A DNA stretch of 32,000 bases from Nonlabens ponticola (GCF_003966335.1 NZ_CP034549.1:1860001-1892000), one strand, 5' to 3'. Counted from the stretch's first letter, positions 6,820 through 32,000 are shown. A program made the numbers and translations. Notes: generated by a model not told the origin, from the letters alone.

Positions 6820-7435
6820 GCCCAGTTGCTTTGAGCGATAGTTTTAATAAATACACACGGCTAGCAGCTCCTAAATTGAAAAGCAAATCTAGTATGCTCA
6901 AATGCTGTACAAACCCATGCTTTTCTTGAAAAACCTGGATGTAAGGTGGTAGTTTTTCCAGGTACTGTTTTTTGGCAGTAATCAAATAAGTTGCTTGACT
7001 ATCAAATTGATAAATTGGGTTTTGAACAATAGGCTGGTCCATATGAAGTTGCTTAGCCACCCAATGCACACAGGCAAGATTCCATTGCTGTAAAGAATTT
7101 ATTTCTTGATCATAAAGCTTGATCAAGTCATCCTGATAATATTCAAAATAAGGACTGCTCTTGTATGCGCTAGCAATACTTTTCAAATGCTGTGATTTCC
7201 ACGGCTGCGATTGATCTATATCAATATCAGCATATGACACAGACTCCTTTTTCCCTTGATGAACTATGGGAATATTAAGCGCCAGTTGACCGTTAGCAGC
7301 AGCGATGTAGCATCGATTGCGATAGGTTTGCTTGACATAGCTATCTCCTAGGTCTAAGGTGATGGTATCGCTGCGTATGAGTTTGCTCCATGTAAGCACA
7401 TCCATAAAATATCCAGGATGTACGATGGTATTCAT
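6812..7435 (-). CDS. WbqC-like family protein
   Basis: 207 aa. The N-terminus HPGYFMDVLTWSKLIRSD...YVKQTYRNRCYIAAANGQLALNIPI resembles the WbqC family signature. Its start overlaps the lepB stop by 1 nt. Confidence 0.75.
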   Translation of the reverse strand: MNTIVHPGYFMDVLTWSKLIRSDTITLDLGDSYVKQTYRNRCYIAAANGQLALNIPIVHQGKKESVSYADIDIDQSQPWKSQHLKSIASAYKSSPYFEYYQDDLIKLYDQEINSLQQWNLACVHWVAKQLHMDQPIVQNPIYQFDSQATYLITAKKQYLEKLPPYIQVFQEKHGFVQHLSILDLLFNLGAASRVYLLKLSLKATGHA

Positions 7436-9036
7436 TACTTCTTTTTTGCCTTACGTCGTTTGTAGATTTTCATCCCTACAAAATATGCGATCAAGACAAC
7501 AAGAAAGTAGACTAGATATGACTGTGGTGTACCGCTACCATTAACGGTCGTGAATAATCTTTCCCATCGTATAGAATCTGGGAACGATCTGTTCTGGTTG
7601 ACGCTCATCCATACAAAAACCGGTTTTCCTACCACGTGAGTTTCTGGCACATAACCCCATACACGGCTGTCCTCACTATTATGGCGGTTGTCACCCATCA
7701 ACCAATAGTAGTTTTGTTTGAAGGTATAGCTGGTGAGTGGTTTACCGTTGAGTAGGACATCGTTTCCTTGTAGATCGACTCTATTAAATGTGTCCATCTC
7801 TGATCCCTCATAAACCTCAATAATCCTACGGAAGTACGCGATATTGCGCGCTGTAATATCTACCGTCATTCCAGCAGCAGGAATAAGGAATGGACTCATA
7901 TTGTCGTATCCGTTCATCTCAAGACCAGTGTATGGGAAATATTTGCCCAGTCTTAATCCACCACGTGTGATATTCTCGTCATAGTCAAATCGGGTCGCTT
8001 GTTTGATGCGTCCGTTTTGTTCTAGCTTAGAAAGTGCCTCTTGAGATGCCGCACTGAAGTATATGGCAGGCTCACCTGTTTGAGGATCTTTTCCTTGCTG
8101 GACCTCATCAGTAATGTCATATTCCTCGATTAATTCATCTCTAGAGAACTGGCCACCGCTCATTTCTGCTACATAGGAATATTGAATCTTGGCCCGATCG
8201 GGTAATTCTAGCGGCTTGCCATTGATGTGAACTTTACCATCAATAATCGATAGTGTATCGCCTGGAATCCCAACGCAACGTTTTACATAGTTGGACTTTT
8301 TATCGATAGGCTTGTAGTGGTATTCTCCATCATTGTAAGGAAACGAATTGATGGTATCAGTAGGATAATTAAAAACCACTATATCATTGCGCTCAACATC
8401 AGTAAAACCTGGTAGTCTTAAATACGGTAGTTGTGGTCGTGCGAGATAACTCTTGACACCCATTACAGGAATAGTATCGTGAACCATAGGTGCTGCCACG
8501 GTTGTCATAGGAAATCTAGGGCCGTAATGAAATTTTGATACAAACAAAAAGTCGCCTGTCATCAAGGTTTTCTCCAATGATGGTGTAGGTATAATAAATG
8601 GCTGCATCACATAGGTATGCACTATGGTTGCGGCAACAACCGCAAACAAGATGCTACTCGTCCATTCACCAGCTGTAGATTCTGGCGTTAGCGATCGATC
8701 TTCTTTATAATTAAGTGGCTGTGTGTAATTTATGTAATAGATGTAAAATCCTAGTGTTACCACACCTAGAATGGTATCTATTAATCTATTGTATCTAAAG
8801 CTGCGCAGGATCTCTACCCAAACCACAATGAACATGATTAAATTCACTACTGGCAGGAACAGTAATATCGTCCACCAGATAGGTCGATTAATAATCTTCA
8901 TGAGAATAACAGCATTGTAGATAGGGGCAAAGGCTTCCCATGCCTGACGACCAGCCGCCTTGTAAATTTTCCACGTTCCTAGACCGTGAACTATTTGGAT
9001 GATTATAAATACTATTAGCCAGGCTGTCCAACTCAT
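7435..9036 (-). CDS. lepB: Signal peptidase I (long Bacteroidota type)
   Basis: 533 aa with N-terminal TM segments. It carries the catalytic Ser box PSLEKTLMTGDFLFVSKFHYG, the Lys box YVKRCVGIPGD, and GDNRHNSEDSRVWGYVP. Confidence 0.92.
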   Translation of the reverse strand: MSWTAWLIVFIIIQIVHGLGTWKIYKAAGRQAWEAFAPIYNAVILMKIINRPIWWTILLFLPVVNLIMFIVVWVEILRSFRYNRLIDTILGVVTLGFYIYYINYTQPLNYKEDRSLTPESTAGEWTSSILFAVVAATIVHTYVMQPFIIPTPSLEKTLMTGDFLFVSKFHYGPRFPMTTVAAPMVHDTIPVMGVKSYLARPQLPYLRLPGFTDVERNDIVVFNYPTDTINSFPYNDGEYHYKPIDKKSNYVKRCVGIPGDTLSIIDGKVHINGKPLELPDRAKIQYSYVAEMSGGQFSRDELIEEYDITDEVQQGKDPQTGEPAIYFSAASQEALSKLEQNGRIKQATRFDYDENITRGGLRLGKYFPYTGLEMNGYDNMSPFLIPAAGMTVDITARNIAYFRRIIEVYEGSEMDTFNRVDLQGNDVLLNGKPLTSYTFKQNYYWLMGDNRHNSEDSRVWGYVPETHVVGKPVFVWMSVNQNRSFPDSIRWERLFTTVNGSGTPQSYLVYFLVVLIAYFVGMKIYKRRKAKKK

Positions 9037-10389: not shown

Positions 10390-11278
10390 TGATAATTTTT
10401 GTGATGCGTTCCAGATCATCCTTTGAGGTGAAAGCTATCGTCAATTTTCCTTTTCCAGACTTGGTCGTAGTTGCCGTAACCTTTGTATTTAAGGCATCAC
10501 TTAGATAGCTAATGGACTTCTCAACATGTGCAGGAAGGCTTTTAGTTTTGTTCTGCTTTCGCGAAAGCTGACCACCCTTCAAACCCTTTACCAATGCCTC
10601 AGTATCACGTACTGATAAGTTGTCTGACAATATTTTTTGATAGATATCCAATTGATCCTCAAGACTCTCAACGCTTATGAGTGCGCGACCATGCCCCATA
10701 CTAATGAAGTTGTCGCGCATACCAGTCTGTATGATCGGGTCTAATTTTAATAGGCGCAAATAGTTGGCAATCGCGCTACGGCTCTTGCCCACACGATCAC
10801 TCATTTGTTCTTGAGTCAGATCAATTTCTTCAATCAATCGCTGGTATGATAAAGCAATTTCAATAGGATCTAAATCTTGACGCTGTATGTTCTCAACCAA
10901 GGCCATTTCCAACGATTCCTGATCGTTAGCAATACGCACATAAGCAGGAATGGTCCTGAGCCCCAATAATTTTGATGCACGGCATCGACGCTCACCTGAG
11001 ACCAGTTCAAACTTGCCAAAACCTTTCTTGCGCACCGTGATAGGTTGTATCACGCCTAATTCTTTTATAGAAGAGGCAAGTTCACGTAGCTGCTCCTCGT
11101 TAAAACTAGTTCTAGGCTGGAAAGGATTCATCTCAATATCATCCAGCGGTAAATCCACAACATTGCCTACAATCTTATCGGCATTCTTGTCTTTAACGCT
11201 ATTGATATCGTTGGTTGGATCTTTTAAAAGAGCCGATAAACCGCGGCCTAGGGCTTGTTTTTTAGTTGCTTTGGCCAT
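10382..11278 (-). CDS. parB: Chromosome partitioning protein ParB
   Basis: 298 aa. It has LGRGLSALL, IQPITVRK, the ParB box LVSGERRCRASKLLGL, and an HTH at TQEQMSDRVGKSRSAIANYLRLLKL. Confidence 0.93.
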   Translation of the reverse strand: MAKATKKQALGRGLSALLKDPTNDINSVKDKNADKIVGNVVDLPLDDIEMNPFQPRTSFNEEQLRELASSIKELGVIQPITVRKKGFGKFELVSGERRCRASKLLGLRTIPAYVRIANDQESLEMALVENIQRQDLDPIEIALSYQRLIEEIDLTQEQMSDRVGKSRSAIANYLRLLKLDPIIQTGMRDNFISMGHGRALISVESLEDQLDIYQKILSDNLSVRDTEALVKGLKGGQLSRKQNKTKSLPAHVEKSISYLSDALNTKVTATTTKSGKGKLTIAFTSKDDLERITKIING

Positions 11279-12047
11279 GTGATTGAGCGTTTTTTTGGAT
11301 TAATTCATTGGCAAGGCTCAGATAATTTTCTGATCCTTTACTGGATGCATCATAATTGATAATGCTCTCACCATAAGATGGCGCTTCACTCAAACGCACA
11401 TTACGCTGAATGATTGTATTAAAGGTAAGCCCTTTAAAATGTTGATTCACTTCTTCAACCACCTGATTTGATAGGCGCAACCTACTGTCATACATGGTAA
11501 GCAGCAAGCCTTCAATATCTAGATCGTCGTTATGGATGTTTTGCACGCTTTTAATGGTATTGAGCAGTTTGCCCAAACCTTCGAGCGCAAAATACTCACA
11601 TTGTATTGGGATTAGGACACTATCACTAGCCGTGAGCGCATTCAAGGTAAGTAGTCCCAATGATGGTGCGCAGTCAATAATAAGATAGTCATATTGATCC
11701 TTGATAGGTGCAAGCGCCTTGCGCATCATATATTCACGTTGCTCGACGTCCACTAACTCAATCTCAATCGCTACCAGATCAATATGTGCTGGTATGATGT
11801 CAAGATTGGGTGATTGGGTTTTTACAATGAGATCTGCAGCTGAGACGGTATGCTCTAGCAATTGGTAAGTTCCTTGCTCTACCTGATCAACGTCAATGCC
11901 TAGACCACTTGAGGCATTTGCCTGTGGATCTGCATCAATGAGCAGTACCGATTTTTCAAGGACACCTAATGATGCAGCGAGATTGACGGCAGTTGTTGTC
12001 TTTCCTACACCACCTTTTTGGTTTGCTATTGCAATAATTTTACCCAT
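11262..12047 (-). CDS. parA: Chromosome partitioning ATPase ParA/Soj
   Basis: ORF-track entry 11262..12104. The likely start is at 12047 (MGKIIAIANQKGGVGKTTTAVNLA, deviant Walker A). DCAPSLG and the rest of the sequence are typical ParA. Confidence 0.92.
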   Translation of the reverse strand: MGKIIAIANQKGGVGKTTTAVNLAASLGVLEKSVLLIDADPQANASSGLGIDVDQVEQGTYQLLEHTVSAADLIVKTQSPNLDIIPAHIDLVAIEIELVDVEQREYMMRKALAPIKDQYDYLIIDCAPSLGLLTLNALTASDSVLIPIQCEYFALEGLGKLLNTIKSVQNIHNDDLDIEGLLLTMYDSRLRLSNQVVEEVNQHFKGLTFNTIIQRNVRLSEAPSYGESIINYDASSKGSENYLSLANELIQKNAQSHGQSN

Positions 12048-12164
12048 GTAAACTGTCGAGAATTTAAGAATGCTAAAGTAAATATTATTGCGCTCTTTAT
12101 ACAATCAAACAACGCCGACTTATACAAACTCATTGTTTACAGCTAGCTTGACTATTTTTGACAC

Positions 12165-13406
12165 ATGAGCAAATTACTAGTCATAGGATTCACATGGCCA
12201 GAGCCACAACGCACCGCAGCCGGTTATAGGATGATGCAGTTGTTGAACATGTTTCAAGAAATGGGGCATGAGGTAGTTTTTTGCTGTGCAGCGCGATTGT
12301 TGGAACGACATGAAAACTATCTAGCAGCACTCAAAATAAAGCCACGACGTATTTCATTGACTGATGACAGTCTCGATCAAGTACTTGCTGGGTTTAATCC
12401 TCAATTGGTAATGTATGATAGGTATCTCATTGAGGAGCAATACGGCTGGAAAGTACGTGAGTACGACCATAAAATCATCCAGATCCTGGATACAGAGGAT
12501 TTACATTGCTTAAGACATGCTCGCGAGCAAGAATTAATACACGGTGTCGATATCAACGTAGCTCTGACGGATACGATTGCTCTACGTGAGATTAGTAGTA
12601 TCATGCGCTGTCAACTTACTTTGATAATATCAAGGTACGAGATGAAATTGTTGCATGATTTTTATGAAGTGCCATCTCATTTACTATTGCACGTTCCTTT
12701 TTTGTGTAAGAAAGAGACCATCGATGATGCTAGTGAAAAATTGGTAGGCTTCAATGATCGTAGGGATTATTGTGCTATCGGTAACTTCAAACATGCTCCC
12801 AATATGGATGCTGTGCGTCAACTCAAATACTATATCTGGCCCGCGATAAGGAAATTAGACCCTAATGTTCATCTATACATTTATGGAGCCAACCCAACCG
12901 CCGAGGCTATGGCTATGCACCATCCAGATGACCATTTTCATATTAGAGCACAGACACCAGATATTCATAAAGTTTTGAGCACTCATCGAGTGATGCTGGC
13001 GCCGTTGCGTTTTGGTGCTGGTCTTAAAGGTAAACTGTACGACGCACTACTTAATGGTTTGCCTACGGTAATGACGCCCATCGCTGCAGAGTCGATGTAT
13101 GTTGAGAATTTTATGCCTGGAGTCGTGGTGGATGATCTTGATCAATTTGCAACTGCTGCGGTGAGTCTTTACCGTGATGGAACTAGATGGAATCTTTATC
13201 AGCAATATTCTTCTTTTAATTTGAATACACTTTATGAGGATACTGCTTTCGCGAAATCGGTACAATTAAAAATTAATGATCTACAACGTGATCCATCTAG
13301 TAACGCTCAGACTTTTATACACGAGATGCTATCCTATCACGGTCAAGAACATTTCAAATTTAAAGGCTATTGGATACGATTGAAAAACGGCGCAAAATCT
13401 TCATAG
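12165..13406 (+). CDS. Glycosyltransferase (GT-B, family 1/4-like)
   Basis: 413 aa. The C-terminal motif APLRFGAGLKGKLYDALLNGLPTVMTP resembles the GT1/GT4 E/R-x-FG...A...G-x-P signature. The substrate is unknown. Confidence 0.7.
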   Translation: MSKLLVIGFTWPEPQRTAAGYRMMQLLNMFQEMGHEVVFCCAARLLERHENYLAALKIKPRRISLTDDSLDQVLAGFNPQLVMYDRYLIEEQYGWKVREYDHKIIQILDTEDLHCLRHAREQELIHGVDINVALTDTIALREISSIMRCQLTLIISRYEMKLLHDFYEVPSHLLLHVPFLCKKETIDDASEKLVGFNDRRDYCAIGNFKHAPNMDAVRQLKYYIWPAIRKLDPNVHLYIYGANPTAEAMAMHHPDDHFHIRAQTPDIHKVLSTHRVMLAPLRFGAGLKGKLYDALLNGLPTVMTPIAAESMYVENFMPGVVVDDLDQFATAAVSLYRDGTRWNLYQQYSSFNLNTLYEDTAFAKSVQLKINDLQRDPSSNAQTFIHEMLSYHGQEHFKFKGYWIRLKNGAKSS

Positions 13407-20545: not shown

Positions 20546-21295
20546 ATGAAGTCATTATTAGAGATTCATCAAGATCTATTGCGCAATCAGCAGGCAATCG
20601 ATAAAGATGAAGTTGAGCAATTCCTGTCAAGGTTTGAGCAAAATGTAATGGCGACGGCACCGCGCAATTCCCTAAGCTATGCGCTGGATCTCAAAACAAT
20701 GAAATATGTTTACGTTAGTGCCAATTGTAGCATTTTTACTGGGAAAACGGTAGAGGATTTTAAGAATAAGGGAATGGACTTGCTGCTAGAGATCATGCAC
20801 AAAGCAGATTTTAAAGCGTTGTCGTATGATTTGTTTCCCGCAATGCAGGAAAAGTATCTAGAACTCTCACTTGAGGATCGCAAGAATACTGTTTTTGAAT
20901 TGTATTACCGGTTGATACACGCCGGTACTGGAATGGAAACGCCGGTTGTAGAATACAGCAGTTATGCCCGATATGATGATGAAGGATCGCCTACTTTTTC
21001 TACTGGTGTGATTTATGAATCACCCTTAGCAATGGATGGTGTGCGAGGTATTGTGCGCCATATTGATAGTGACGCTCAAACTACATTGTTTGATCGCTGC
21101 GATTTTCATGCGCTTGATGTACTTACCAAAACGGAGAAAGCCATTGTGCAATCCTTCATTAAAAATCAATCCAGAGATTGTATCGCTGCAGACTTGAATA
21201 TCTCTATCCACACGGTACGCACGCATTTTAAAAATATCTACAAGAAGCTCGATATCAATAAGGAAGCAGATTTACTGGGTGTGGTGAAAATCTAA
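20546..21295 (+). CDS. LuxR-family transcriptional regulator with an N-terminal PAS-like sensor region
   Basis: 249 aa. The C-terminal HTH is LTKTEKAIVQSFIKNQSRDCIAADLNISIHTVRTHFKNIYKKLDI (GerE/LuxR type). Confidence 0.85.
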   Translation: MKSLLEIHQDLLRNQQAIDKDEVEQFLSRFEQNVMATAPRNSLSYALDLKTMKYVYVSANCSIFTGKTVEDFKNKGMDLLLEIMHKADFKALSYDLFPAMQEKYLELSLEDRKNTVFELYYRLIHAGTGMETPVVEYSSYARYDDEGSPTFSTGVIYESPLAMDGVRGIVRHIDSDAQTTLFDRCDFHALDVLTKTEKAIVQSFIKNQSRDCIAADLNISIHTVRTHFKNIYKKLDINKEADLLGVVKI

Positions 21296-21354
21296 TAAGC
21301 TTTTATCATTTCAAGCAATATTGCCTTGATGTGATAAAGGATATTTTTAAATGA

Positions 21355-21488
21355 AGACAACGGTCTGAGATATAAGTAGTTGCGTGGGTTAGCGTTAAAC
21401 TTTGCAAGTACATGCCAAACTGAAAATCCGCTAGGATTTTCAGAAGTAGGCGAGAACAAGCAATTACTTATAGCTATTGTTGTAAAAC
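21355..21488 (-). repeat. attC-like imperfect palindrome, unit 1 (~134 bp), directly after the stop of the 287-aa ORF
   Basis: The minus strand reads TTTTACAAC-AATAGC-[TATAAGTAATTGC ... inner hairpin CTGAAAATCC-TAGC-GGATTTTCAG ... GCAACTACTTATA]-TCTCAGACC-GTTGTCT. The 13-bp outer stem pairs 21371..21383 with 21460..21472 and contains one G:T. It is homologous to unit 3 at 24009..24140. Confidence 0.6.
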
Positions 21489-21489
21489 G

Positions 21490-22353
21490 TTATTTGTCTT
21501 CTTTCGATTTAATTTCAAAGTATTTCTCTATGTAAAGTATGATGTCTCTTTTACGAGGTATAAAGTTACTTTGATTACTTACTTCTTCACTTATAATGTC
21601 TACAAATCCATTCTTGATGTCTTCATAGGTCAAATGACTATTCTTGTCTAAAAATTCATATACTAGTTTTCGAGTTCTCATTCTTCTCGTTAACGGACTT
21701 ATTTCTCTTTGAACAACTTCCTCGTTTATTCCGTTTTGTTCCAATCTCATCAACATTAATTCTTTAGATAAATTATCAAGCTTTGAAAGTATATATTTGC
21801 TTTCAGCAATTTCAGTCTGATTAATTTTTGCGGGAACTATAGTTTTACCGAAACTTTTTAAGAATGGCGAATAATTTGCTTCAGATTTTGCTTTATCATA
21901 AGTAGCATTAATCCTTTTTACCAATTCAGATTTGAATTCTACAATTTTATTAAATCTTAAAGATGATGGATAGTTTAAATGTTCAATAACTCCAGTATCA
22001 AATGAATACCCTGTCTTTTCGTCCTTTATAATAATTGTTGGCTTGTCAAATGCTAATCTCAATCCAAGTTCAAACATAACATTAGGATTTTTAGAACTAA
22101 CATCACAAATAACAATTTCATCATTATAAATATTATTTACTATTCTTTCGTGTATTAAACCAATAGCAACATCATCACTAACAAGTCTTGGCTCAAATTC
22201 TGTTTGTTTCACAGTATCAACTAAAATCGACAGAACCTCTTTCCAGTGTTCTTTAGAATATTCTGGATGTGAGGCAATGGGCATAATTATACCACATTTT
22301 TTTTGTTGCTTCTTAAGTACTTCTTTCTTTACTGCTTCTTTTTTCTCTGGCAT
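21490..22353 (-). CDS. Cassette ORF 1: nucleoside 2-deoxyribosyltransferase-like (Rossmann/SLOG-like) N-terminal domain plus a helical C-terminal domain
   Basis: 287 aa with AT-rich codon usage. CGIIMPIAS...IVICDVSSKNPNVMFELGLRLAFDKPTIIIKD resembles the D-x-(S/G)-x-x-N/D-x-G/V-x-x-E-x-G-x-A-x-x-x-x-KP-x-I signature of the deoxyribosyltransferase-like fold. The family call is unverified. Confidence 0.75.
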   Translation of the reverse strand: MPEKKEAVKKEVLKKQQKKCGIIMPIASHPEYSKEHWKEVLSILVDTVKQTEFEPRLVSDDVAIGLIHERIVNNIYNDEIVICDVSSKNPNVMFELGLRLAFDKPTIIIKDEKTGYSFDTGVIEHLNYPSSLRFNKIVEFKSELVKRINATYDKAKSEANYSPFLKSFGKTIVPAKINQTEIAESKYILSKLDNLSKELMLMRLEQNGINEEVVQREISPLTRRMRTRKLVYEFLDKNSHLTYEDIKNGFVDIISEEVSNQSNFIPRKRDIILYIEKYFEIKSKEDK

Positions 22354-22387
22354 TGGTTATTATGTTTTACGACGACAAAGGTATAAT

Positions 22388-22570
22388 GCGCCTCAGGCGT
22401 CCCAAACTTTTTATGGTCGTTTATATTGATATTGTTTTGTTGAATATAGCGATTACTTTGATTATATTGAGCCTTATGGGAAGTAGCTTGAATTCAAGAA
22501 ATGAAGAATGAGCGAGAGAAAGACATCAAGACGCGCATGAAGGCAACTGGCTCGAACGGTCTTATTTAAG
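22388..22570 (-). repeat. Conserved inter-cassette module, copy A (X-Y-Z parts), upstream of cassette ORF 1
   Basis: It aligns base for base with 23542..23683 (gcgcNtcaggcgtc...attatattgagcc...gaagaatgagcgagagRaa). Its right end, gagagaaagacatc...aggcaactggctcgaacggt, aligns with 23972..24018. Confidence 0.85.
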
Positions 22571-22658
22571 AAAAGTAGTGGATTAAACTCTTCCTAACCA
22601 TCAGTTTTAAAAAAGACCGCTAATTGGTTCCTATTGTTGCGATTGAGAGTTTAAACTG

Positions 22659-23501
22659 CTATTTCTTATAAATGGGTGTCCGTTTGGCTAAAAATGCTAA
22701 AGTTATTTTGTAGGCATCTTGGGTTTGCCAAAAAGACGCATGCTCTTTACTAAATAGATTGTCGCCTTTGTCATTATAAATATTCATAGTTATGTTGGTA
22801 GAAAAATTTTGAGTTGAAGAACTATACGTGCTGCTTGAACTAATCCTTTTATTATCATTCCAAATATCACCGATTATATGACCTTTTTTATCTACGTGCG
22901 CTGTAGTGGATTGAGATTTTGTCGCGGTATTACTATAATTGGTGACGGTAGATTTTTCAATAGAGACTAAACCTTGTACCAAATATTCCACACCTAGAAT
23001 ATTGCTTATTTCACCCATAGTATATCCTGCGAGATTATTGTTGTCTAGACCAGCTTTCGCTAATAAAGCATTCGTGGTGGTTGGATCTTGAAACTCAAGA
23101 TTCTGAGATTTCTTTTTAAAAATAGTATAGGTTTCCTGTTGGATTTTTCTGGTCATTAAAGCATTACTTGTTTCGAGATCTTTTATGTAACCAAAAGGTA
23201 GAATTGCGACCTTATTATGGTGATCTTCTAGGTTCAAATCTGAATTTTTAGTAGCATTATTATAAAATTCAACTCGTCCAGACGCAAAGGTAATTTTTGC
23301 TATATCAGATTTCTCCACAGTATATTCAATTGTTTCATTTTGATAGATAAATTGAAGGTCGGCTGAATTAATTTTAATGACTTTCCCTTTCATCTCATCG
23401 CCATTAACTTTTAAAATAACATCACTTTGAGCTGCAGCTAGGTGTATAAGTAATAGGCACAATGTAATTAGCGATACTTGTTTTGAACAAATTTTAGACA
23501 T
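22659..23501 (-). CDS. Cassette ORF 2: secreted hypothetical protein
   Basis: 280 aa. Signal peptide MSKICSKQVSLITLCLLLIHLAAAQS. Ser/Thr/Asn-rich C-terminal half. No confident family. Confidence 0.75.
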   Translation of the reverse strand: MSKICSKQVSLITLCLLLIHLAAAQSDVILKVNGDEMKGKVIKINSADLQFIYQNETIEYTVEKSDIAKITFASGRVEFYNNATKNSDLNLEDHHNKVAILPFGYIKDLETSNALMTRKIQQETYTIFKKKSQNLEFQDPTTTNALLAKAGLDNNNLAGYTMGEISNILGVEYLVQGLVSIEKSTVTNYSNTATKSQSTTAHVDKKGHIIGDIWNDNKRISSSSTYSSSTQNFSTNITMNIYNDKGDNLFSKEHASFWQTQDAYKITLAFLAKRTPIYKK

Positions 23502-23541
23502 AATATTTGGTATTAGTGATTTGTTATGTTGAAGATTAAAA

Positions 23542-23683
23542 GCGCGTCAGGCGTCTCAACCTTTGTATAGTCGGTTAGATTGATGTTGTTTTGGTATGTT
23601 GAAGATAGCGATTAGTTGGATTATATTGAGCCTAGCAGGAAGCCGCTAGCATCCGACGAGCGAAGAATGAGCGAGAGGAATGC
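23542..23683 (-). repeat. Conserved inter-cassette module, copy B (X and Y parts), upstream of cassette ORF 2
   Basis: See copy A. Similarity starts about 35-40 nt upstream of each ATG, at the GCGC(C/G)TCAGGCGTC hairpin. Confidence 0.85.
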
Positions 23684-23788
23684 ATTATCTTTCATTTATA
23701 CATTGTTCGCTCCAGTTGGTTGTGGCGACCTTGACCGTGCCAAGTATGCACTAGCTAACCTTAAGGCGTTTCACACCTTTGCCGACTT

Positions 23789-23983
23789 GTCTCCGACGAG
23801 CCGCTAGGCGAGAGGAAGACACACCAATTGAGTAGATCGGGAGTCTTGAAAATCAGATTTTATCTGACGCTCGCTTTGCTTTTGAATTGAGTAGTGTATA
23901 TCTGTTTCAGGTCCTTGCTTGCGGATCAAAATCTGATTTTCATATTGTCTCCGACGAGTGAGTTTGCGAACGAGAGGAAGACA
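23789..23983 (-). repeat. Two direct Y-part copies bracketing a 94-bp hairpin
   Basis: GTCTCCGACGAG...CGAGAGGAAGACA occurs at 23789..23821 and again at 23947..23983. Between them is a perfect 14-bp inverted repeat: GAAAATCAGATTTT (23848..23861) and AAAATCTGATTTTC (23928..23941). Confidence 0.8.
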
Positions 23984-24008
23984 TCTAGATACGTCCGCAG
24001 GCAATTGG

Positions 24009-24140
24009 CTCGAACGGTTATGTATAAATATAGTTGCGGGTTTGCGTGCGAAGAATTTCCGAAGGAAATTTAGATGTAGCAAATACGCAACTGCCTTTAT
24101 TTTAGCACTAAACCGCAATTATTTTTATACGGTGTTGTGC
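24009..24140 (-). repeat. attC-like imperfect palindrome, unit 3 (~132 bp), directly after the stop of the 129-aa ORF
   Basis: The minus strand reads GCACAAC-ACC-[GTATAAAAATAATTGCGGTTTAGTGC ... inner hairpin AATTTCC-TTC-GGAAATT ... GCACGCAAACCCGCAACTATATTTATAC]-ATAACC-GTTCGAG. The arms are at 24022..24049 and 24105..24130, with bulges. Confidence 0.6.
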
Positions 24141-24147
24141 ATAGTTT

Positions 24148-24537
24148 TTATTCACATACTTTATTTTTTTCAATCCACGGATTAATAAATTTCCTTTCAG
24201 TTCCGAGTATTGTTTTCATTTCGGGTTCGTCGAAAATTAGATAGAAATTTTTGTCTTTTTCCACGTATTTAAATTTCAATTCAGTACAATATTTTCCAGT
24301 GCCGTGATTTACGAGCATACTTATAATTCCATCTTCAATTTTTATGTCTTTCACGGATTCCACCATAATAAAATTAACTTTTATATCAGAAGGAATTTCT
24401 TTTTCACTATAATTTCCAAGGTCATTCATTTCAATCATTTCGTCAACGATTTCTTGAATCCATTTGTCAATAGATTTTTCTTGGTTGATTTGGATGTTTG
24501 AAATTCCAATCAAAAATGTCAGTAAAATTATTTTCAT
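24148..24537 (-). CDS. Cassette ORF 3: small secreted hypothetical protein
   Basis: 129 aa, very AT-rich, with the hydrophobic N-terminus MKIILLTFLIGISN. It is flanked by a perfect 10-bp inverted repeat (24134..24143 and 24554..24563). Confidence 0.65.
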   Translation of the reverse strand: MKIILLTFLIGISNIQINQEKSIDKWIQEIVDEMIEMNDLGNYSEKEIPSDIKVNFIMVESVKDIKIEDGIISMLVNHGTGKYCTELKFKYVEKDKNFYLIFDEPEMKTILGTERKFINPWIEKNKVCE

Positions 24538-24553
24538 ATTCTGTTTCTCAAAT

Positions 24554-24759
24554 TATGCACAACGGCCAGATATATGAACCGTAGCATCTAAAGATAGAGA
24601 AATCTTCGATTTTGCAGGCAGCCAATTTTATCAAATCTTGCGAACGACCTTTTATATATCGGTAGCCAAATTTGATAAAATTTGGCGGAAACCGGTTGAA
24701 ACAGAACCCAGCAATCCAATCCAAGCGATAGCTATGGTTTATATATGTTGTTGTGAAAC
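24554..24759 (-). repeat. Inter-cassette structured repeat, unit 4
   Basis: The ends are TATGCACAACGGCCAGATATATG ... TTTATATATGTTGTTGTGAAAC, inverted copies of each other. The internal hairpin pairs CCAATTTTATCAAAT (24622..24636) with ATTTGATAAAATTTGG (24670..24685). The stretch gcaggcagccaatt...gcgaacgacc is a diverged copy of the Z part aggcaaYtggctcgaacggt. Confidence 0.7.
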
Positions 24760-25067
24760 GTGGTAGAAGATTGATGCGAGCGCAGGCGATCACGTAAAAA
24801 TGGCGGCTCAAAACACCAGCTTTCAATGTTTGAAATACAACCGACCGATTTGCACGAACAGAACGTGCAAACGTATCAAGACGCAACCGCTTTAAAAACC
24901 CAAACCAAAGCTCTTTTGATTCCCAAACCGAACTGTCGCCATTTTTTCAAAACACAGAACTCGCTGGAATTTGAAGTCGAAGAGTAGATCAGTCAAGCCG
25001 ATGGAAGCGGAAACCTAAAGCCGTAAAACCAAGGTCGTCAAGCTCAACCACCATGTTTCACAACGGT

Positions 25068-25180
25068 TATATAAACAAACCTAAGCCAAATCTTACCACT
25101 TTACAATACTGATTATAGGGTATATACAAACCTTTTGAGGTGGTTGGGTAAATTTCCCAATTGGGTTGTATATGCAAACC
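25068..25180. repeat. Three direct repeats, TATAT(A/G)-CAAACCT, spaced about 50 bp apart at the dnaK-proximal end of the array
   Basis: tatataaacaaacct (25068..25082), tatatacaaacct (25121..25133) and tatatgcaaacct (25169..25181). The first abuts the GTTTCACAAC box at 25055..25064. Confidence 0.7.
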
Positions 25181-25283: not shown

Positions 25284-25306
25284 AGCAAAACCCAAAAACA
25301 ACCAAC

Positions 25307-25340
25307 AAAAAAAGACCCTGAAATCAATCAGAGTCTTTTT
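25307..25340 (-). terminator. Rho-independent terminator downstream of dnaK
   Basis: The minus strand reads AGACTCTGA-TTGATT-TCAGGGTCT followed by TTTTTTTGTT. The hairpin sequence is related to the GACCCTGAA..TTCAGGGTC repeats upstream of dnaK. A second, weaker hairpin (AAATAAGC-GCA-GCTTATTT on the plus strand) lies at 25386..25404. Confidence 0.7.
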
Positions 25341-25444: not shown

Positions 25445-27346
25445 CTACTTGACTTCTTCGAAATCTACGTCTTCAACATCGCTGGTGTCATCTGCACTCG
25501 TAGCATCAGCACCTGCATCTGCTCCGGGCGCGCCAGCCGCATCGGCCTGCGCTTTGTACATCTCTTCACTAGCTGCTGTCCAGACGGTATTAAGCTTCTC
25601 AAGAGCTGGATCGATCTTCTCGATCTCCTTAGTCTCATAAGCCGCTTTCAACTCGTCTAGAGCCTCAGTAATTGGCGCCTTCTTGTCGTCACTTAGCTTA
25701 TCGCCAAATTCTTCCAACTGCTTCTCAGTTTGGAAAATCATCTGGTCAGCTGCGTTCAGCTTATCTACTTTCTCTTTGGCTTTTGCATCAGCTTCAGCGT
25801 TTGCCTCAGCTTCCTGCTTCATCTTTTGGATTTCTTCTTCAGTCAATCCAGACGATGCCTCGATGCGTATGTCCTGCTTCTTATTAGTCGCTTTATCCTC
25901 GGCACTTACCTTGATGATACCATTGGCATCAATATCAAAGGTTACTTCAATCTGCGGTGTACCGCGACGTGCTGGTGGTATTCCATCTAGGTGAAATCTA
26001 CCTATCGTCTTATTATCGGTCGCCATAGAGCGCTCTCCTTGCAGTACATGGATCTCAACACTTGGCTGATTGTCTGCTGCTGTAGAGAACACCTGTGACT
26101 TCTTGGTTGGGATCGTGGTATTGGCCTCGATCAACTTAGTCATCACGCCACCCATGGTCTCGATACCTAGAGATAACGGAGTCACATCTAATAAAAGAAC
26201 ATCCTTAACATCACCAGTCAATACACCACCTTGGATCGCTGCACCTACGGCAACCACTTCGTCAGGATTCACACCTTTTGATGGCTTCTTGCCAAAGAAT
26301 TTCTCAACAGCTTCCTGCACGGCAGGAATACGAGTAGATCCACCAACTAGGATAATCTCATCGATATCGCCTGTTGATAGTCCAGCAGCTTTAAGCGCTG
26401 TTTGACATGGCTCGATAGTTCTTTTTACAAGGTCGCTGATCAATTGCTCAAACTTTGAACGAGTCAATGTTTTTACAAGGTGTTTAGGACCGCTGGCCGT
26501 TGCCGTTACATAAGGCAAGTTAATTTCAGTCTGTGCACTAGATGATAGCTCAATTTTGGCTTTCTCTGCCGCTTCTTTCAAACGCTGTAACGCCATGGCA
26601 TCTTTGCGTAAATCGATATCCTCATCTGCCTTAAACTCATCTGCTAGCCAGTTGATGATTTTCTCATCTACATCGTCACCACCTAGGTGCGTGTCACCAT
26701 CAGTTGATAGTACCTCAAATACACCATCACCCAATTCTAGGATAGATACATCGTGTGTACCACCACCAAAGTCAAATACCACAATCTTCTGGTCGGTATC
26801 CTTCTTGTCCATACCATAAGCAAGCGCTGCTGCAGTAGGCTCATTGATGATACGCTCTACTTTCAATCCAGCGATCTCACCAGCTTCTTTAGTCGCCTGG
26901 CGCTGGCTATCGTTAAAGTAGGCAGGTACCGTGATCACGGCGCCAGTTACTTCTTGACCTAGGTAATCCTCGGCCGTTTTCTTCATTTTTTGCAGGATCA
27001 TCGCACTCAATTCTTGCGGCGTGTACAAGCGACCGTCAATGTCCACACGTGGCGTGTCGTTATCACCTTTTACCACTTTGTACGGTACACGTTCTGCCTC
27101 CTTTTGAGACTCGCTGTACTTGTTACCCATAAAACGTTTGATCGAGTAGATCGTTTTCTCTGGGTTCGTTACCGCTTGACGCTTTGCAGGATCACCTACC
27201 TTGATCTCACCACCTTCTACAAAGGCAATGACAGATGGCGTCGTGCGCTTTCCTTCTGCATTAGGGATCACCGTAGGCTCGCTACCTTCCATTACAGATA
27301 CACAGCTGTTGGTCGTCCCTAAATCAATTCCTATGATTTTACTCAT
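25445..27346 (-). CDS. dnaK: Molecular chaperone DnaK (Hsp70)
   Basis: 633 aa. [21 protein letters not shown]-like ([12 protein letters not shown]), [11 protein letters not shown] and the remainder are canonical Hsp70. Confidence 0.97.
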
Positions 27347-28349: not shown

Positions 28350-28643
28350 GTCATGCTGAACTAATTTCAGCATCTCACAAGAGTCAAAATCTAGCACAGG
28401 CCCTGAAATAAATTCAGGGTGACAATAACAAAAACCTTGTCATGCTGAACTGGTTTCAGCATCTCTCGTAAGTCAGACTCTAGCACAGACCCTGAACCAA
28501 GTTCAGGGTGACAATCGTGAGTTTCTCTGTCATGCTGAACTGGTTTCAGCACCTCAACAAAGCAAGAGCATTGCACAGACCCTGAAATCAATTCAGGGTG
28601 ACATTCAAAACCACCACTGTCATGCTGAACTGGTTTCAGCATC
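28350..28643. repeat. Array of alternating hairpin repeats, right block
   Basis: Type 1 copies are at 28350, 28439, 28529 and 28619. Type 2 copies are at 28399, 28488 and 28578. The composite unit repeats about every 90 bp. Confidence 0.9.
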
Positions 28644-28741
28644 TCACCAATGAATAATTGCACCATCAAAACCGTACACCTTTTGTTAAACCTTACGGCT
28701 CATTTCACGATAATTATATTTTTGCGCTATACATATGTTGC

Positions 28742-31700
28742 ATGAATCAGATTTACAAGATTGTCGCCACTTTACTACTGTTAATTATTCTCAGCGCCTG
28801 CGCAAGACGCGCCGTACAGATTTCAGGCGACCAAGTCAATATCCAGAACGAGAAGCCTTTCCAACGATTTTATCTTTTTGGAAATGTAGGTGTCAATGAC
28901 CCAGACTCGCCAGCAGCCTTTGACGCGATGTTGCAGCATATTAATGAAAATTCAAAAAAAGATGATTATCTATTATTACTAGGAGATAATGTCCTTGCTA
29001 ATTCTATCAGGAAAGATGATGAAGATAATAAGGATGCCAATCAATTTAAAAAGCAGCTAGAACAAATTGCCAAAATCGATATCAATACGCTCGTGCTACC
29101 AGGAGATCACGATTGGAATGACGAGGGCATGGACGGCCTCAAAAAGATAGAAGAGTTTACTGAGGAGTATCTGGATAACGACGAGGCTTTTCAACCAGAA
29201 AATGCCTGTCCATTAGAAGAATTAAACATAAGCGATCAAGTAGAAATGCTTATCGTGGATAGTCAATGGTATATTGAAGATTGGGATAAAAACCCCAACT
29301 TTAATGACGAGTGCGAGATCAACACAAGAGAAAAATTTATCAAAGTGTTGGCAGATGAATTGCGCAAGGCAAGACACAAAACAATTATACTCGCCATGCA
29401 TCATCCTTTATATACCAATGGTGTACATGGTGGTCAATTGGGTATGCGTATGGTTACCACACCCAAACAGGAGAATGCCTACATTCCTGGATTGGGTTTT
29501 GCCTATAGTTTTGTACGCTCTCAGGCTGGTCTATTTCCGCAGGATAGATACAATCCATTGATGAATGATTTGATGCGCGAGATTGAAACCGCTGGATCTG
29601 GTATCGATAGACTATTGGTAGTATCGTCTCATGAGGAAAGTCTACAATACATAGATCGCGATAATATTAAGCAAGTAGTTTCTGGAGCGACCGTTTCTCA
29701 AAACATTGTCTCTTTAGGTAAAAAGGGAAAGTTTGCGGCTGGAAAAATAGGTTTCAGTGAGGTGCGCGTGTTTGAGGATCAAAGTTCGCAAGTATTGTTC
29801 TACTTAGTTGATGAGCAAGGTAATCTTGAGCAAGTATATTCTAACAAGCTTTTTGACGAGAAAAAACCTTATGATATTGATGGGATCACCGTCACTAATA
29901 AGGATGCCATCGCTGCCAGTATTTACAGCAAAGAAGAAACTGAAATGTCTGCAAAAGATGAGGAGTTTTACGGCAAGCATTACCGGGAACTTTACGGCAT
30001 TGATGTCAAGGCACCAGTAGTAATGCTGGACACGCTATACGGTGGTTTGAGAGTTGAGCGGGCTGGTGGTGGTAATCAAACGCAAGGACTTAGACTAATA
30101 GGAAAAGGAGATCGCGAATACAACATGCGTGCACTTGAAAAGGATGCATTACAATTCTTAAAAAGCGCCGGTTTTAATGAGCTTGATGCCGAGAGATATT
30201 TTGGCGAGACGTTACCTCAAGAACTTATAAGGGATTTTTACACTTCAGCACATCCGTATGGCGCATTTGCAGTACCCAGATTAGCTGGCGCCATAAAACT
30301 TAATCATACACACCCTAAGTTATTCTGGATACCTAAGCAACCTGTTTTAGGTGATTTTAATGACATTCATGGTGATCGTTTATACATGATTGTGGAGAAA
30401 CCAGATGATTCTTTTGACTCGCCACACATGTTCGGTTACAACAAAGACGTGGAGAGCACAGACGACTTGTTTGCTAAAATCAGGGAAGACGAGAAATATA
30501 CGGTAGATGAGGAAATGTACATACGTGCTCGCGTATTTGACATGTTGCTAGGCGATTGGGATCGCCATGAGGATCAATGGCGCTGGGCAGAAATTAAAGA
30601 TAGTGAAGACTCAGAGAAAAGTCGCTTTGTCGCGGTGCCGCGAGATCGTGATCAGGTTTTTGCTAGGTTTGATGGTAAACTATTGGAGTTTTTAAACAGC
30701 ACCATTGGCGTGACTAAACAGTTCGGTAATTATGGACCTGACATTGAGCACATCAATGAATTCAGTCAGAGTGCTAAATATTTAGATCATGCCGTGCTAC
30801 AAAGAACCACTCGCGAGGACTGGCTTACCGCTGTAAACTATATACAGAAGAATATAGATGAGAACGTGGTAAAAATGGCCTTTAACGAGATGCCAAAAGA
30901 AGTTAAAGATGACTTATGGCAACAGACTCAAGAAGATTTACTTGCTAGAAAATCAAATTTGGAAAACATTGTCAATCGCTATTATGATAACTTCATATTG
31001 TTTCAAACCTTGAAAGGAACTGACAAGGATGATATATTCTTCATTGAGCGTCTCGATAAGGAAACCACAGTAAAAGCCTACCGCAATAAGGATGGAGAAG
31101 CGGCAGATGTACTTTTTGAAAGAAGTTTTAAGGATAATAAAACTGAAGAAATTTGGATTTACGGTCTTGACGATGACGATGAGTTTACCATAAGCGGTTC
31201 TGGTAATTCAAAAATTCAAATAGTAATCGTTGGAGGAAAAGGCGATGATAAATACACTATTGAGAATGGCAAGAATGTAAAGATCTATGATTTTGAAAGT
31301 GAGAAGAATGAGGTTGAAAAACGAAACGGTGCTAGTGTCGTACTGCGCGATGATTATGATATTAATCATTACAACCATAGAAAAGCACCAACTAGCAAAT
31401 TGGGTTTTGGTGCTCAGGTAACCTACAATCCTGATGACGGCGTGAGACCACAAATAAGCATTTCAAAATCAGTGTTGGGTTATGAACGCAATCCATACAG
31501 TTTAAAATATGGCATTGAGGCAGACTACAGATCCCTAACTCAAGCAGCCATTTTTCAAGGACATCTTGCCAAGGCAAATATTCTAGGTCACTGGAACCTG
31601 CGAGCAGATGCCTTGATCACGACAAACAATTATACCCAAAACTTCTTTGGTTACGGCAACAACACCACATTTGATGGCGACACAGATTTTGACGACAATC

Positions 31701-32000
31701 GCGTGCTAATGCAAAGACAAGAGGCGAGTCTTTCTATTTACAAGCATGGTGATTATGGTAGCGATTTCCAATTCGGTATCCAGTATAGAGGTATAGAGGT
31801 AGAACCTGATATCACCAGATCAGCATTAATTGATAACCAGCGAGATGATTATCTCGACTATACCTTTAAATATCTATTTGACAGCTACGACAACGAGCGT
31901 TTTAAGACTCGTGGTATGCATCTAGAAAACGTTTTGTCCTTTACAGACAATCTGGCAAATGGCGAGAATTTTTTGAGCATAGATCCATCACTAACCTTTT
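28742..32000 (+). CDS. Paralogue of the 416..4153 metallophosphoesterase / Omp85-like lipoprotein; the 3' end is cut by the window edge
   Basis: Own translation from the ATG at 28742: MNQIYKIVATLLLLIILSAC..., then GDNV, GDHDWN, AMHHPLYTNGVHGG, SSHEESLQY, FYTSAHPYGAF, DMLLGDWDRHEDQWRW, VPRDRDQVFARFDG, and so on. It is collinear with the first protein. The frame is open to 32000, so it is absent from the ORF track. Confidence 0.88.
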   Translation, partial: MNQIYKIVATLLLLIILSACARRAVQISGDQVNIQNEKPFQRFYLFGNVGVNDPDSPAAFDAMLQHINENSKKDDYLLLLGDNVLANSIRKDDEDNKDANQFKKQLEQIAKIDINTLVLPGDHDWNDEGMDGLKKIEEFTEEYLDNDEAFQPENACPLEELNISDQVEMLIVDSQWYIEDWDKNPNFNDECEINTREKFIKVLADELRKARHKTIILAMHHPLYTNGVHGGQLGMRMVTTPKQENAYIPGLGFAYSFVRSQAGLFPQDRYNPLMNDLMREIETAGSGIDRLLVVSSHEESLQYIDRDNIKQVVSGATVSQNIVSLGKKGKFAAGKIGFSEVRVFEDQSSQVLFYLVDEQGNLEQVYSNKLFDEKKPYDIDGITVTNKDAIAASIYSKEETEMSAKDEEFYGKHYRELYGIDVKAPVVMLDTLYGGLRVERAGGGNQTQGLRLIGKGDREYNMRALEKDALQFLKSAGFNELDAERYFGETLPQELIRDFYTSAHPYGAFAVPRLAGAIKLNHTHPKLFWIPKQPVLGDFNDIHGDRLYMIVEKPDDSFDSPHMFGYNKDVESTDDLFAKIREDEKYTVDEEMYIRARVFDMLLGDWDRHEDQWRWAEIKDSEDSEKSRFVAVPRDRDQVFARFDGKLLEFLNSTIGVTKQFGNYGPDIEHINEFSQSAKYLDHAVLQRTTREDWLTAVNYIQKNIDENVVKMAFNEMPKEVKDDLWQQTQEDLLARKSNLENIVNRYYDNFILFQTLKGTDKDDIFFIERLDKETTVKAYRNKDGEAADVLFERSFKDNKTEEIWIYGLDDDDEFTISGSGNSKIQIVIVGGKGDDKYTIENGKNVKIYDFESEKNEVEKRNGASVVLRDDYDINHYNHRKAPTSKLGFGAQVTYNPDDGVRPQISISKSVLGYERNPYSLKYGIEADYRSLTQAAIFQGHLAKANILGHWNLRADALITTNNYTQNFFGYGNNTTFDGDTDFDDNRVLMQRQEASLSIYKHGDYGSDFQFGIQYRGIEVEPDITRSALIDNQRDDYLDYTFKYLFDSYDNERFKTRGMHLENVLSFTDNLANGENFLSIDPSLTF

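Follow-up and report, generated by a model that had tools for sequence, protein, structure and literature searches.

The interval between a luxR-type regulator gene and dnaK on the chromosome of Nonlabens ponticola holds unrelated genes separated by imperfect palindromes, and it raises the question of whether these genes are mobile cassettes and, if so, of what kind of system. We analyzed this interval within a 32-kb stretch of the chromosome, hereafter the window, to which all coordinates refer; the gene strand of the array is the minus strand. A first-pass annotation had proposed either a cluster of attC sites lacking an integrase (CALIN) with divergent attC sites or an undescribed cassette system. 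Both halves of that proposal are supported, in that the interval is organized as cassettes and its sites belong to a recombinase-linked, non-classical family. We consider it likely that the interval comprises four mobile cassettes of an integron-like system widespread in Flavobacteriaceae. Because cassettes and an upstream half-site are present here and no recombinase lies within 32 kb, the locus would be a satellite array that lacks a recombinase, comparable to a CALIN.

Read from dnaK toward luxR, the array consists of half-site e, an ORF-less cassette (lacking an open reading frame, ORF), site d, ORF3, site c, a leader and ORF2, site b, a leader and ORF1, and finally site a. Each cassette would run from the TT of one G|TT crossover through the G of the next. 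The features are as follows.

21351–25064, minus strand: whole array of four cassettes (ORF-less, ORF3, ORF2 and ORF1).
25183–25163 and 25135–25118, minus strand: direct repeats AGGTTTGyaTATAyaaCC, by sequence reading two more copies of the core of half-site e, upstream of it.
25050–25088, minus strand: half-site e, TTAGGTTTGTTTATATAACC, then the crossover, then GTTGTGAAACATGGT; crossover G at 25064.
24563–25063, minus strand: cassette 1, ORF-less, 501 nt including site d.
24553–24761, minus strand: site d, attC-like, long class, with a variable loop of 145 nt; R'' AAC at 24752–24750, R' GTT at 24563–24561.
24015–24562, minus strand: cassette 2, 548 nt, with a 25-nt leader, ORF3 (24148–24537, 129 aa) and site c.
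24005–24145, minus strand: site c, attC-like; R'' AAC at 24136–24134, R' GTT at 24015–24013.
22557–24014, minus strand: cassette 3, 1458 nt, with module B, a 283-nt insert (23967–23686), ORF2 (22659–23501, 280 aa) and site b.
22548–22687, minus strand: site b, attC-like, weak; R' GTT at 22557–22555, R'' triplet ambiguous.
21361–22556, minus strand: cassette 4, 1196 nt, with module A (22556–22354), ORF1 (21490–22353, 287 aa) and site a.
21351–21490, minus strand: site a, attC-like, last of the array; R'' AAC at 21481–21479, right after the ORF1 stop codon, R' GTT at 21361–21359.

The three minus-strand ORFs and the ORF-less segment of the first-pass annotation are thus recovered, the latter as the body of cassette 1 (24765–25049), in which no ORF exceeds 53 aa. 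The hairpins between the units span 125–210 nt and are imperfect, with the form R''(..AAC)-3 nt-stem-loop-stem-6 nt(..CC)-R'(GTT..). The gene-strand sequence at each of the five junctions is ..CC|GTT..; every site opens with ..CAAC, which a 3-nt spacer separates from the stem. Sites a, c and d are AAC/GTT hairpins with an R box, spacer, L box and variable loop, and site b is ambiguous in this respect. The terminal boxes originally given (TTACAAC/GCACAAC...GTTGTCT/GTTCGAG) are better written as nnnCAAC and GTTGnnn with an asymmetric spacer of 3 nt and 6 nt. The sites resemble one another in structure and short motifs, not in overall sequence. The earlier claim of one repeat family in every gap therefore stands insofar as an AAC...GTT palindrome follows every unit; it does not extend to the rightmost element, e, which is a half-site, and it is qualified by the weakness of site b and by the structural nature of the likeness. 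We also considered the plus strand as the top strand of the cassettes, from the side of the bulge, and rejected it because the model matches, the ORFs and the polarity of the half-site are all minus.

Sites of the same kind accompany a tyrosine recombinase gene in other Flavobacteriaceae. In Christiangramia sp. OXR-203 (locus L035), a co-oriented array behind such a gene contains a repeat of ~126 nt in 12 copies, and for each of the 11 pairs of adjacent repeats, the sequence that follows GTT in one repeat is the reverse complement of that preceding AAC in the next. In the stems, 90% of cells were paired with compensatory changes, versus 22–39% when the partners were slid. A covariance model (R1) built from the 12 Christiangramia repeats matched only sites c (37.6 bits, E = 8e-8) and a (25.9 bits, E = 8e-5) in the window. 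A genome scan for the recombinase yielded at least 547 confirmed species-level loci, the best 80 of which are Flavobacteriaceae loci, and R1 identified 105 sites in these 80. The model rebuilt from those 105 sites (R2), which like R1 contains no window sequence, gave exactly four matches in the window, all on the minus strand, co-oriented with the genes and one cassette apart: c (59.7 bits, E = 3.9e-12), a (43.9 bits, E = 2e-8), d (42.3 bits, E = 4.7e-8) and b, with nothing else at E <4. Three of these sites also have relatives at the nucleotide level by blastn. Site c is 85% identical over 137 nt to L106:11384–11520 (Polaribacter) and 82% identical to L077:11915–12051 (Lacinutrix); site a is 88% identical over 132–137 nt to L062:20593–20724 and L092:20169–20304 (an Ulvibacter metagenome-assembled genome and Winogradskyella); and site b shares 71.5% identity with L101:16163–16275 (Polaribacter) across 116 nt.

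We counted the family with R2 at E ≤ 1e-3 in 84 loci, comprising 660 kb upstream and 303 kb downstream of the recombinase gene. All 236 sites found lie on the recombinase strand, 235 of them downstream of the gene and one upstream, and at least one site is present in 40 of the 41 loci whose downstream sequence amounts to 1.5 kb or more. The lone upstream site (L070, 5379–5519, 73 bits) may be a satellite site like those in the window. Many recombinase loci (within L038–L117) end at a contig end within ~1 kb downstream of the gene, which suggests that short-read assembly fails at the repeated sites and that draft genomes show too few arrays. The median cassette of the family is 729 nt, compared with spacings of 501–1458 nt in the window, where four sites fall within 3.4 kb; 40 sites belong to a long class of >190 nt, like site d. 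AAC and GTT are invariant in the 229 sites in which both triplets were located, by construction, as sites were anchored on the triplets.

The hallmark of the Christiangramia repeats, complementarity between the start of a cassette and its own R'' flank, extends across the family. The 10 nt from GTT of one site are complementary to the 10 nt ending in AAC of the next at a mean of 9.26 of 10 positions, and 169 of 189 cassettes reach at least 9/10, versus 2.8% of random pairs. Cassettes 1 and 2 of the window score 10/10, and their matches extend to 14–15 nt with one mismatch each: cassette 1 begins with 15 nt complementary to 24750–24764, and the start of cassette 2, GTTGTGCATAATTT, is complementary over 14 nt to AAACTATGCACAAC at 24134–24147. 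By a rough estimate, matches of this length are expected well under once per thousand in the search space. The sites also share a folding asymmetry. The bottom strand is the stabler one in 215 of 228 family sites, by a mean of 2.9 kcal/mol (p = 1e-35), a bias consistent with sites being read as folded single strands. In the window, the plus-strand hairpins of sites a, c and d have z-scores of −4.0 to −5.6 and are 2–7 kcal/mol stabler than those of the minus strand; the plus-strand z-score of site a is −5.6, and site d reaches −32.9 kcal/mol (z = −4.6) on the plus strand and −25.6 kcal/mol on the minus strand.

These observations bear on the alternative that non-mobile hairpins (terminators or elements of the repetitive extragenic palindrome or bacterial interspersed mosaic element type) or miniature transposable elements bounded by terminal inverted repeats flank the genes by chance. 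The hairpins do stand just past stop codons, where they could terminate transcription, and cassettes 1 and 2 resemble elements with terminal inverted repeats of 14–15 nt. Against this, no T-run follows the window hairpins, no transposase is present, the sites are strictly co-oriented and chained, and each apparent terminal repeat is common to both sides of a G|TT junction. The first-pass annotation had named a scatter of the repeats through ordinary intergenic regions as a refuting outcome; in the sequence covered here, the family model has no match in the window's remaining 28 kb or in loci L001, L002 and L032, and only the one in 660 kb upstream of recombinase genes. We regard this alternative as highly improbable.

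What would move such cassettes? The recombinase associated with the family is a 385-aa protein with SAM-like and catalytic domains and an N-terminal extension of ~90 aa. Its best family match is NF040815 (XerA-type; NCBI name 'tyrosine recombinase/integron integrase'), at 224.9 versus a cut-off of 220. Its best solved relatives are the XerA structures 5hxy and 4a8e, which align in one piece over 264 residues. Public names for the protein vary among XerD, integrase and integron integrase, and public data contain >3400 related proteins at E ≤ 1e-60. In 66 of the 80 loci, a primary, attI-like site of the form ..GATATAACcA|GTTG.., ..GATATAACCA|GTTG.. or ..TATATTnGTTTGGATATAACcA|GTTGnnnnCAA.. follows the gene; the median distance from the end of the recombinase protein match to the G|TT crossover of this site is 36 nt. 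A reading of this site as a mini-hairpin was dropped, as only 9 of the 66 sites support it.

Cassettes appear to turn over at the primary site. Two Christiangramia strains whose recombinase genes share 93% nucleotide identity are collinear up to the primary-site junction; past it, the cassette that stands first in one strain (HigBA) occupies third or fourth place in the other, and the remainder is unrelated, which is what insertion at the primary site predicts. Within L035, the first cassette (878–1460) is apparently a second copy of a deeper one in the same array (6958–7540); both copies begin with GTTATATAC and have a 29-nt segment in common, as expected from excision and re-insertion at the primary site. 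The same array contains a reverse-transcriptase gene (RVT_1; 11191–12462) that may be a group II intron, and attC-targeting group II introns are known in integrons.

In the window, the counterpart of the primary site would be half-site e, which bounds the array on the left when read in the gene sense. It has neither a 5' arm nor a hairpin and gives no significant covariance-model match, and it resembles, in part, the 3' half of the primary site found past the recombinase gene elsewhere. On a position weight matrix (PWM) of the 66 primary sites, true sites score ≥22.5 bits and junctions a–d −22 to +4; with fixed spacing, the matrix finds no primary site in the window, where the top score is −3.

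Might the array instead be a classical CALIN, left by the decay of a canonical integron, with attC sites on which a true IntI encoded elsewhere would act? The AAC/GTT triplets, R and L boxes, variable loop and start/R'' complementarity all fit integron cassettes, and the NCBI family model name for the linked recombinase is 'site-specific tyrosine recombinase/integron integrase'. Yet the integron-integrase model TIGR02249 gives the recombinase that accompanies the sites in 40 of 41 loci a score of 193.8, below the cut-off of 265, with a match split in two. Integron integrases carry an additional, IntI-specific domain of ~35 residues near patch III (PMC4889954). VchIntIA aligns with the linked recombinase in two pieces, so that 11 aa stand against IntI residues 190–246 (57 aa, the IntI-specific region), whereas XerA aligns in one. 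The window itself encodes no recombinase to which this comparison could apply.

The sites argue in the same direction. As a stand-in for the official attC model, we built a canonical-type covariance model (R3) from 14 class 1 attC sites of seven plasmids; it recovers four held-out sites (cmlA1, blaOXA-2, aadA5 and dfrA27; E = 2e-11 to 7e-3) as well as untrained sites. Across the window and loci L035, L092 and L062 (86.5 kb with >40 family sites), the best R3 match had E = 0.36 and none overlapped a family site. R3 thus matched none of the window sites, in line with the earlier view of them as divergent from canonical attC, and in the reciprocal search R2 found no canonical attC. The array accordingly answers to the CALIN definition (at least two attC sites within 4 kb and no integrase) with the family model and not with R3. 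A survey with IntegronFinder 2.0 names in Bacteroidetes only In0 elements and one complete integron, that of Salinibacter (PMC9024848). Taken with the recombinase comparison, a classical CALIN appears improbable here.

The arrangement found elsewhere suggests how the system may work, by analogy with integrons and from the strand asymmetry of folding. A complete platform would consist of the gene for the 385-aa Xer-like recombinase, the primary site and then the cassettes, all on the same strand. Each site would take the form R''(..CAAC)-3 nt-L'' stem-variable loop-L' stem-6 nt ending in CC-R'(GTTG..), and the recombinase would recognize it as a hairpin folded from the bottom strand. After cutting at G|TT, it would release cassettes as circles and integrate them anew at the primary site, in the manner of IntI acting on attC and attI. 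At the N. ponticola locus, either the recombinase would have been lost or the array seeded at a secondary site, and its cassettes would move only with a recombinase supplied from elsewhere in the genome. The recombination chemistry, the recognition of single strands and any present activity are each proposed on this basis.

Several observations weigh against a mobile array of this family. No tyrosine recombinase, nor a remnant of one, lies in the entire 32 kb (best tblastn E = 1.8), as the first-pass annotation had noted from its own reading. A protein search with a Winogradskyella recombinase returned no Nonlabens entry among the best 120, which is not evidence of absence. Upstream of the array stand dnaK and its terminator in place of a recombinase gene, so the array is not directly downstream of one as in the other loci. 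The link between recombinase and sites is one of genomic association. Half-site e scores 13 bits on the primary-site PWM (24.6 for the core), below all true sites, and does so only with a 1-nt gap. Site b is weak (R2 20.3 bits, E = 0.0067), with an R'' triplet that does not read clearly as AAC; its 5' arm falls within the 3' end of the ORF2 coding sequence, and despite a 28-nt inverted repeat (22564–22591/22646–22673), its hairpin z-score is only −1.7. Cassettes 3 and 4 lack start/R'' complementarity (~4/10); the start of cassette 3, TTCGAGCCAATTGCC, shows no such match to the R'' flank of site b. These two cassettes also share an unexplained leader module. Finally, the extrahelical bases in L'' that set strand choice in attC sites may have a counterpart in one bulged base of the Christiangramia sites, which is not kept in the family consensus or in sites a and c; the family shows a conserved 3-nt/6-nt spacer asymmetry in its place.

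Part of this evidence would be accounted for if the array were an inert fossil, a dead remnant in which ordinary accessory genes retain leftover hairpins. The missing recombinase, the degenerate site b, the half primary site and the loss of complementarity in two cassettes would follow, and two cassettes have gained a promoter-like leader, as expected if array-level transcription was lost. Opposed to this, sites a, c and d (43.9, 59.7 and 42.3 bits) score like many sites of complete arrays, and the 14–15-nt complementarity kept by cassettes 1 and 2, with a single mismatch each, argues against long decay. We consider an inert array possible and rather unlikely; the idea concerns present activity only and is compatible with an origin of the cassettes in the Flavobacteriaceae system proposed here.

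The leader module of cassettes 3 and 4 differs from its first description as a conserved module of ~170 bp before each ORF. Only two ORFs are preceded by it, as module A (22354–22556) and module B (23502–23685 plus 23968–24014), which are 72–80% identical and both span the stretch from crossover to ATG; module B is split by the 283-nt insert. By eye, module A contains a Bacteroidetes-type promoter motif, TTTG-N19-TAccTTTG, just upstream of ORF1. Within the ORF1 cassette, a weak match to its R'' flank at 22362–22373, not significant on its own, may mark the original start of that cassette, judging from sequence. Both modules contain a short upstream ORF that starts at the same ATG (22500–22535 and 23660–23690, minus sense); the encoded peptides (module A, 10 aa; module B, 16 aa) share M-x-[FS]-S-R-S-F-F. 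The insert (23686–23967) contains repeated units GTCTTCCTCTCG..CTCGTCGGAGAC, with a similar third unit within the module itself, a perfect 15-nt inverted repeat (23847–23861/23928–23942) and a 14-nt direct repeat (23787–23800/23945–23958); it may be a small inserted element. A blastn search of the modules against the 84 recombinase loci found nothing, and no further copy emerged from viral, metagenome or locus searches. The 29 matches of a viral 16-mer scan were taken as chance, as were 103 stretches from a metagenome 18-mer scan, for which blastn gave one 25-nt match.

Among the cassette genes, which the first-pass annotation had described as not looking housekeeping, no Pfam family exceeds its cut-off in ORF1, ORF2 or ORF3. 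ORF1 belongs to a large Bacteroidota family (4644 homologues, 50–87% identity), and a homologue with 70% amino acid identity forms a cassette between two sites of the Christiangramia array (L035:5982–6834). Its N-terminal domain has a nucleoside 2-deoxyribosyltransferase/DNPH1-like fold (model pLDDT of 72; Foldseek E = 1e-4, target TM of 0.63), and PADLOC gives a weak TIR match. The public name 'RNA helicase' for this family has no support here and seems unfounded. The family is highly conserved, with 83 invariant columns among 29 sequences from many genera, and many members lie on contigs of ~1 kb, as expected for a mobile cassette gene. In Chryseobacterium joostei, beside groES/groEL (L032, 5971–6905), an ORF1 homologue lies within a run of small co-oriented ORFs and is flanked by an 18-nt inverted repeat, GTTAGCTGGCATATTAT/ATAATATGTCAGCTAAC; neither R1 nor R2 matches this locus, and Weeksellaceae may have another site class. 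ORF2 and ORF3 look secreted, by signal peptides recognized by eye only, and have no informative family.

The surroundings of the array are those of an ordinary Flavobacteriaceae chromosome, with parAB, dapB, lepB, a type IX secretion system protein, a DEAD helicase, the PAS-LuxR regulator and dnaK. The LuxR-type protein and ORF1 match N. ponticola proteins at 100% identity. The luxR-type gene ends at 21295 and dnaK at 25445, with the dnaK terminator at ~25305–25338. The first-pass description of the interval as AT-richer than its flanks is accurate for the array ORFs (GC of 0.28–0.35 versus ~0.40) and not for the spacer at 23501–24000 (0.44, not below the flanks). N. marinus has the same neighbors with only ~730 nt from luxR to dnaK and one unrelated small gene there, and the 4-kb interval is therefore variable; the first-pass annotation had asked whether it is conserved gene for gene in related genomes, and in N. 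marinus it is not. In the alignment to N. marinus only the dnaK terminator aligns, and insertion boundaries are not definable from this comparison. Rfam searches of the window at gathering and permissive thresholds returned nothing relevant, and no tRNA genes were found in it. Farther right, an open frame of at least 1114 aa on the plus strand (28658–32000) runs off the end of the window, and almost no ORFs are therefore listed past dnaK. At 28350–28647, a 90-nt unit occurs in 3.3 tandem copies, each carrying two hairpins (GTCATGCTGAAC..GTTTCAGCATC and ACCCTGAAAT..ATTCAGGGT); translation of the tract yields a 'MLKPVQHD' pseudo-ORF (28391–28669).

The architecture of these arrays is common to canonical integrons, and their site class is distinct. 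Shared with integrons and CALINs are co-oriented, mostly single-gene cassettes, toxin–antitoxin cassettes and probable recombinase-less satellite arrays; imperfect-palindrome sites in which AAC/GTT triplets are combined with R and L boxes, a spacer left unpaired and a loop of variable length; a G|TT crossover with a cassette start that complements its own R''; a bias toward bottom-strand folding; and a primary site beside the recombinase gene, at which new cassettes appear to be inserted. Unlike an integron integrase, the family recombinase lacks the ~35-residue IntI domain, is closest to XerA, carries the ~90-aa N-terminal extension and is encoded immediately upstream of the array in the same orientation, not divergently. 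The sites, in turn, are longer (~125 nt, with a second class of ~200 nt) and have an asymmetric spacer (3 nt and 6 nt ending in CC) with no conserved extrahelical base seen, and canonical-type and family covariance models do not detect each other's sites. In the 'inverted' integrons of Treponema denticola, the integrase lies on the cassette strand, as in the Flavobacteriaceae platforms; integrases of that type are true IntI proteins that carry the additional domain, and standard models detect the attC sites of such integrons. The family recombinase is of the Xer type, as is that of the archaeal XerA/dif system, and the pdif modules of Acinetobacter plasmids, genes bounded by recombinase sites, also move as modules. 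Xer sites, by contrast, are 28-bp duplexes with two arms and a 6–8-bp center, whereas the family sites are hairpins of 125–210 nt, and we know of no Xer system with chained cassette arrays and start/end complementarity.

We found no description of such arrays in Flavobacteriaceae in the literature searched, a limited library, and to our knowledge integrons are regarded as nearly absent from Bacteroidota. We lean somewhat toward a broader view, in which these loci represent an undescribed integron-like lineage widespread in Flavobacteriaceae, with an Xer-like recombinase that lacks the IntI domain and attC-like sites of its own, and in which the N. ponticola array is the first satellite to be noticed. 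On this broader view, its own site class and its recombinase without an IntI domain would let the platforms escape standard integron detection, and current integron finders would have a blind spot. The IntI-specific domain is regarded as what enables a tyrosine recombinase to read folded attC. If the broader view is correct, a second recombinase lineage does the job of IntI without that domain, or else recombination of the integron type predates the IntI clade and extends beyond it. The lineage would then offer a test of how hairpins and strands are recognized without an IntI domain and of where cassettes originate. It would also mean that abundant marine bacteria hold a large hidden pool of mobile accessory genes, including toxin–antitoxin and possibly defence-type genes.

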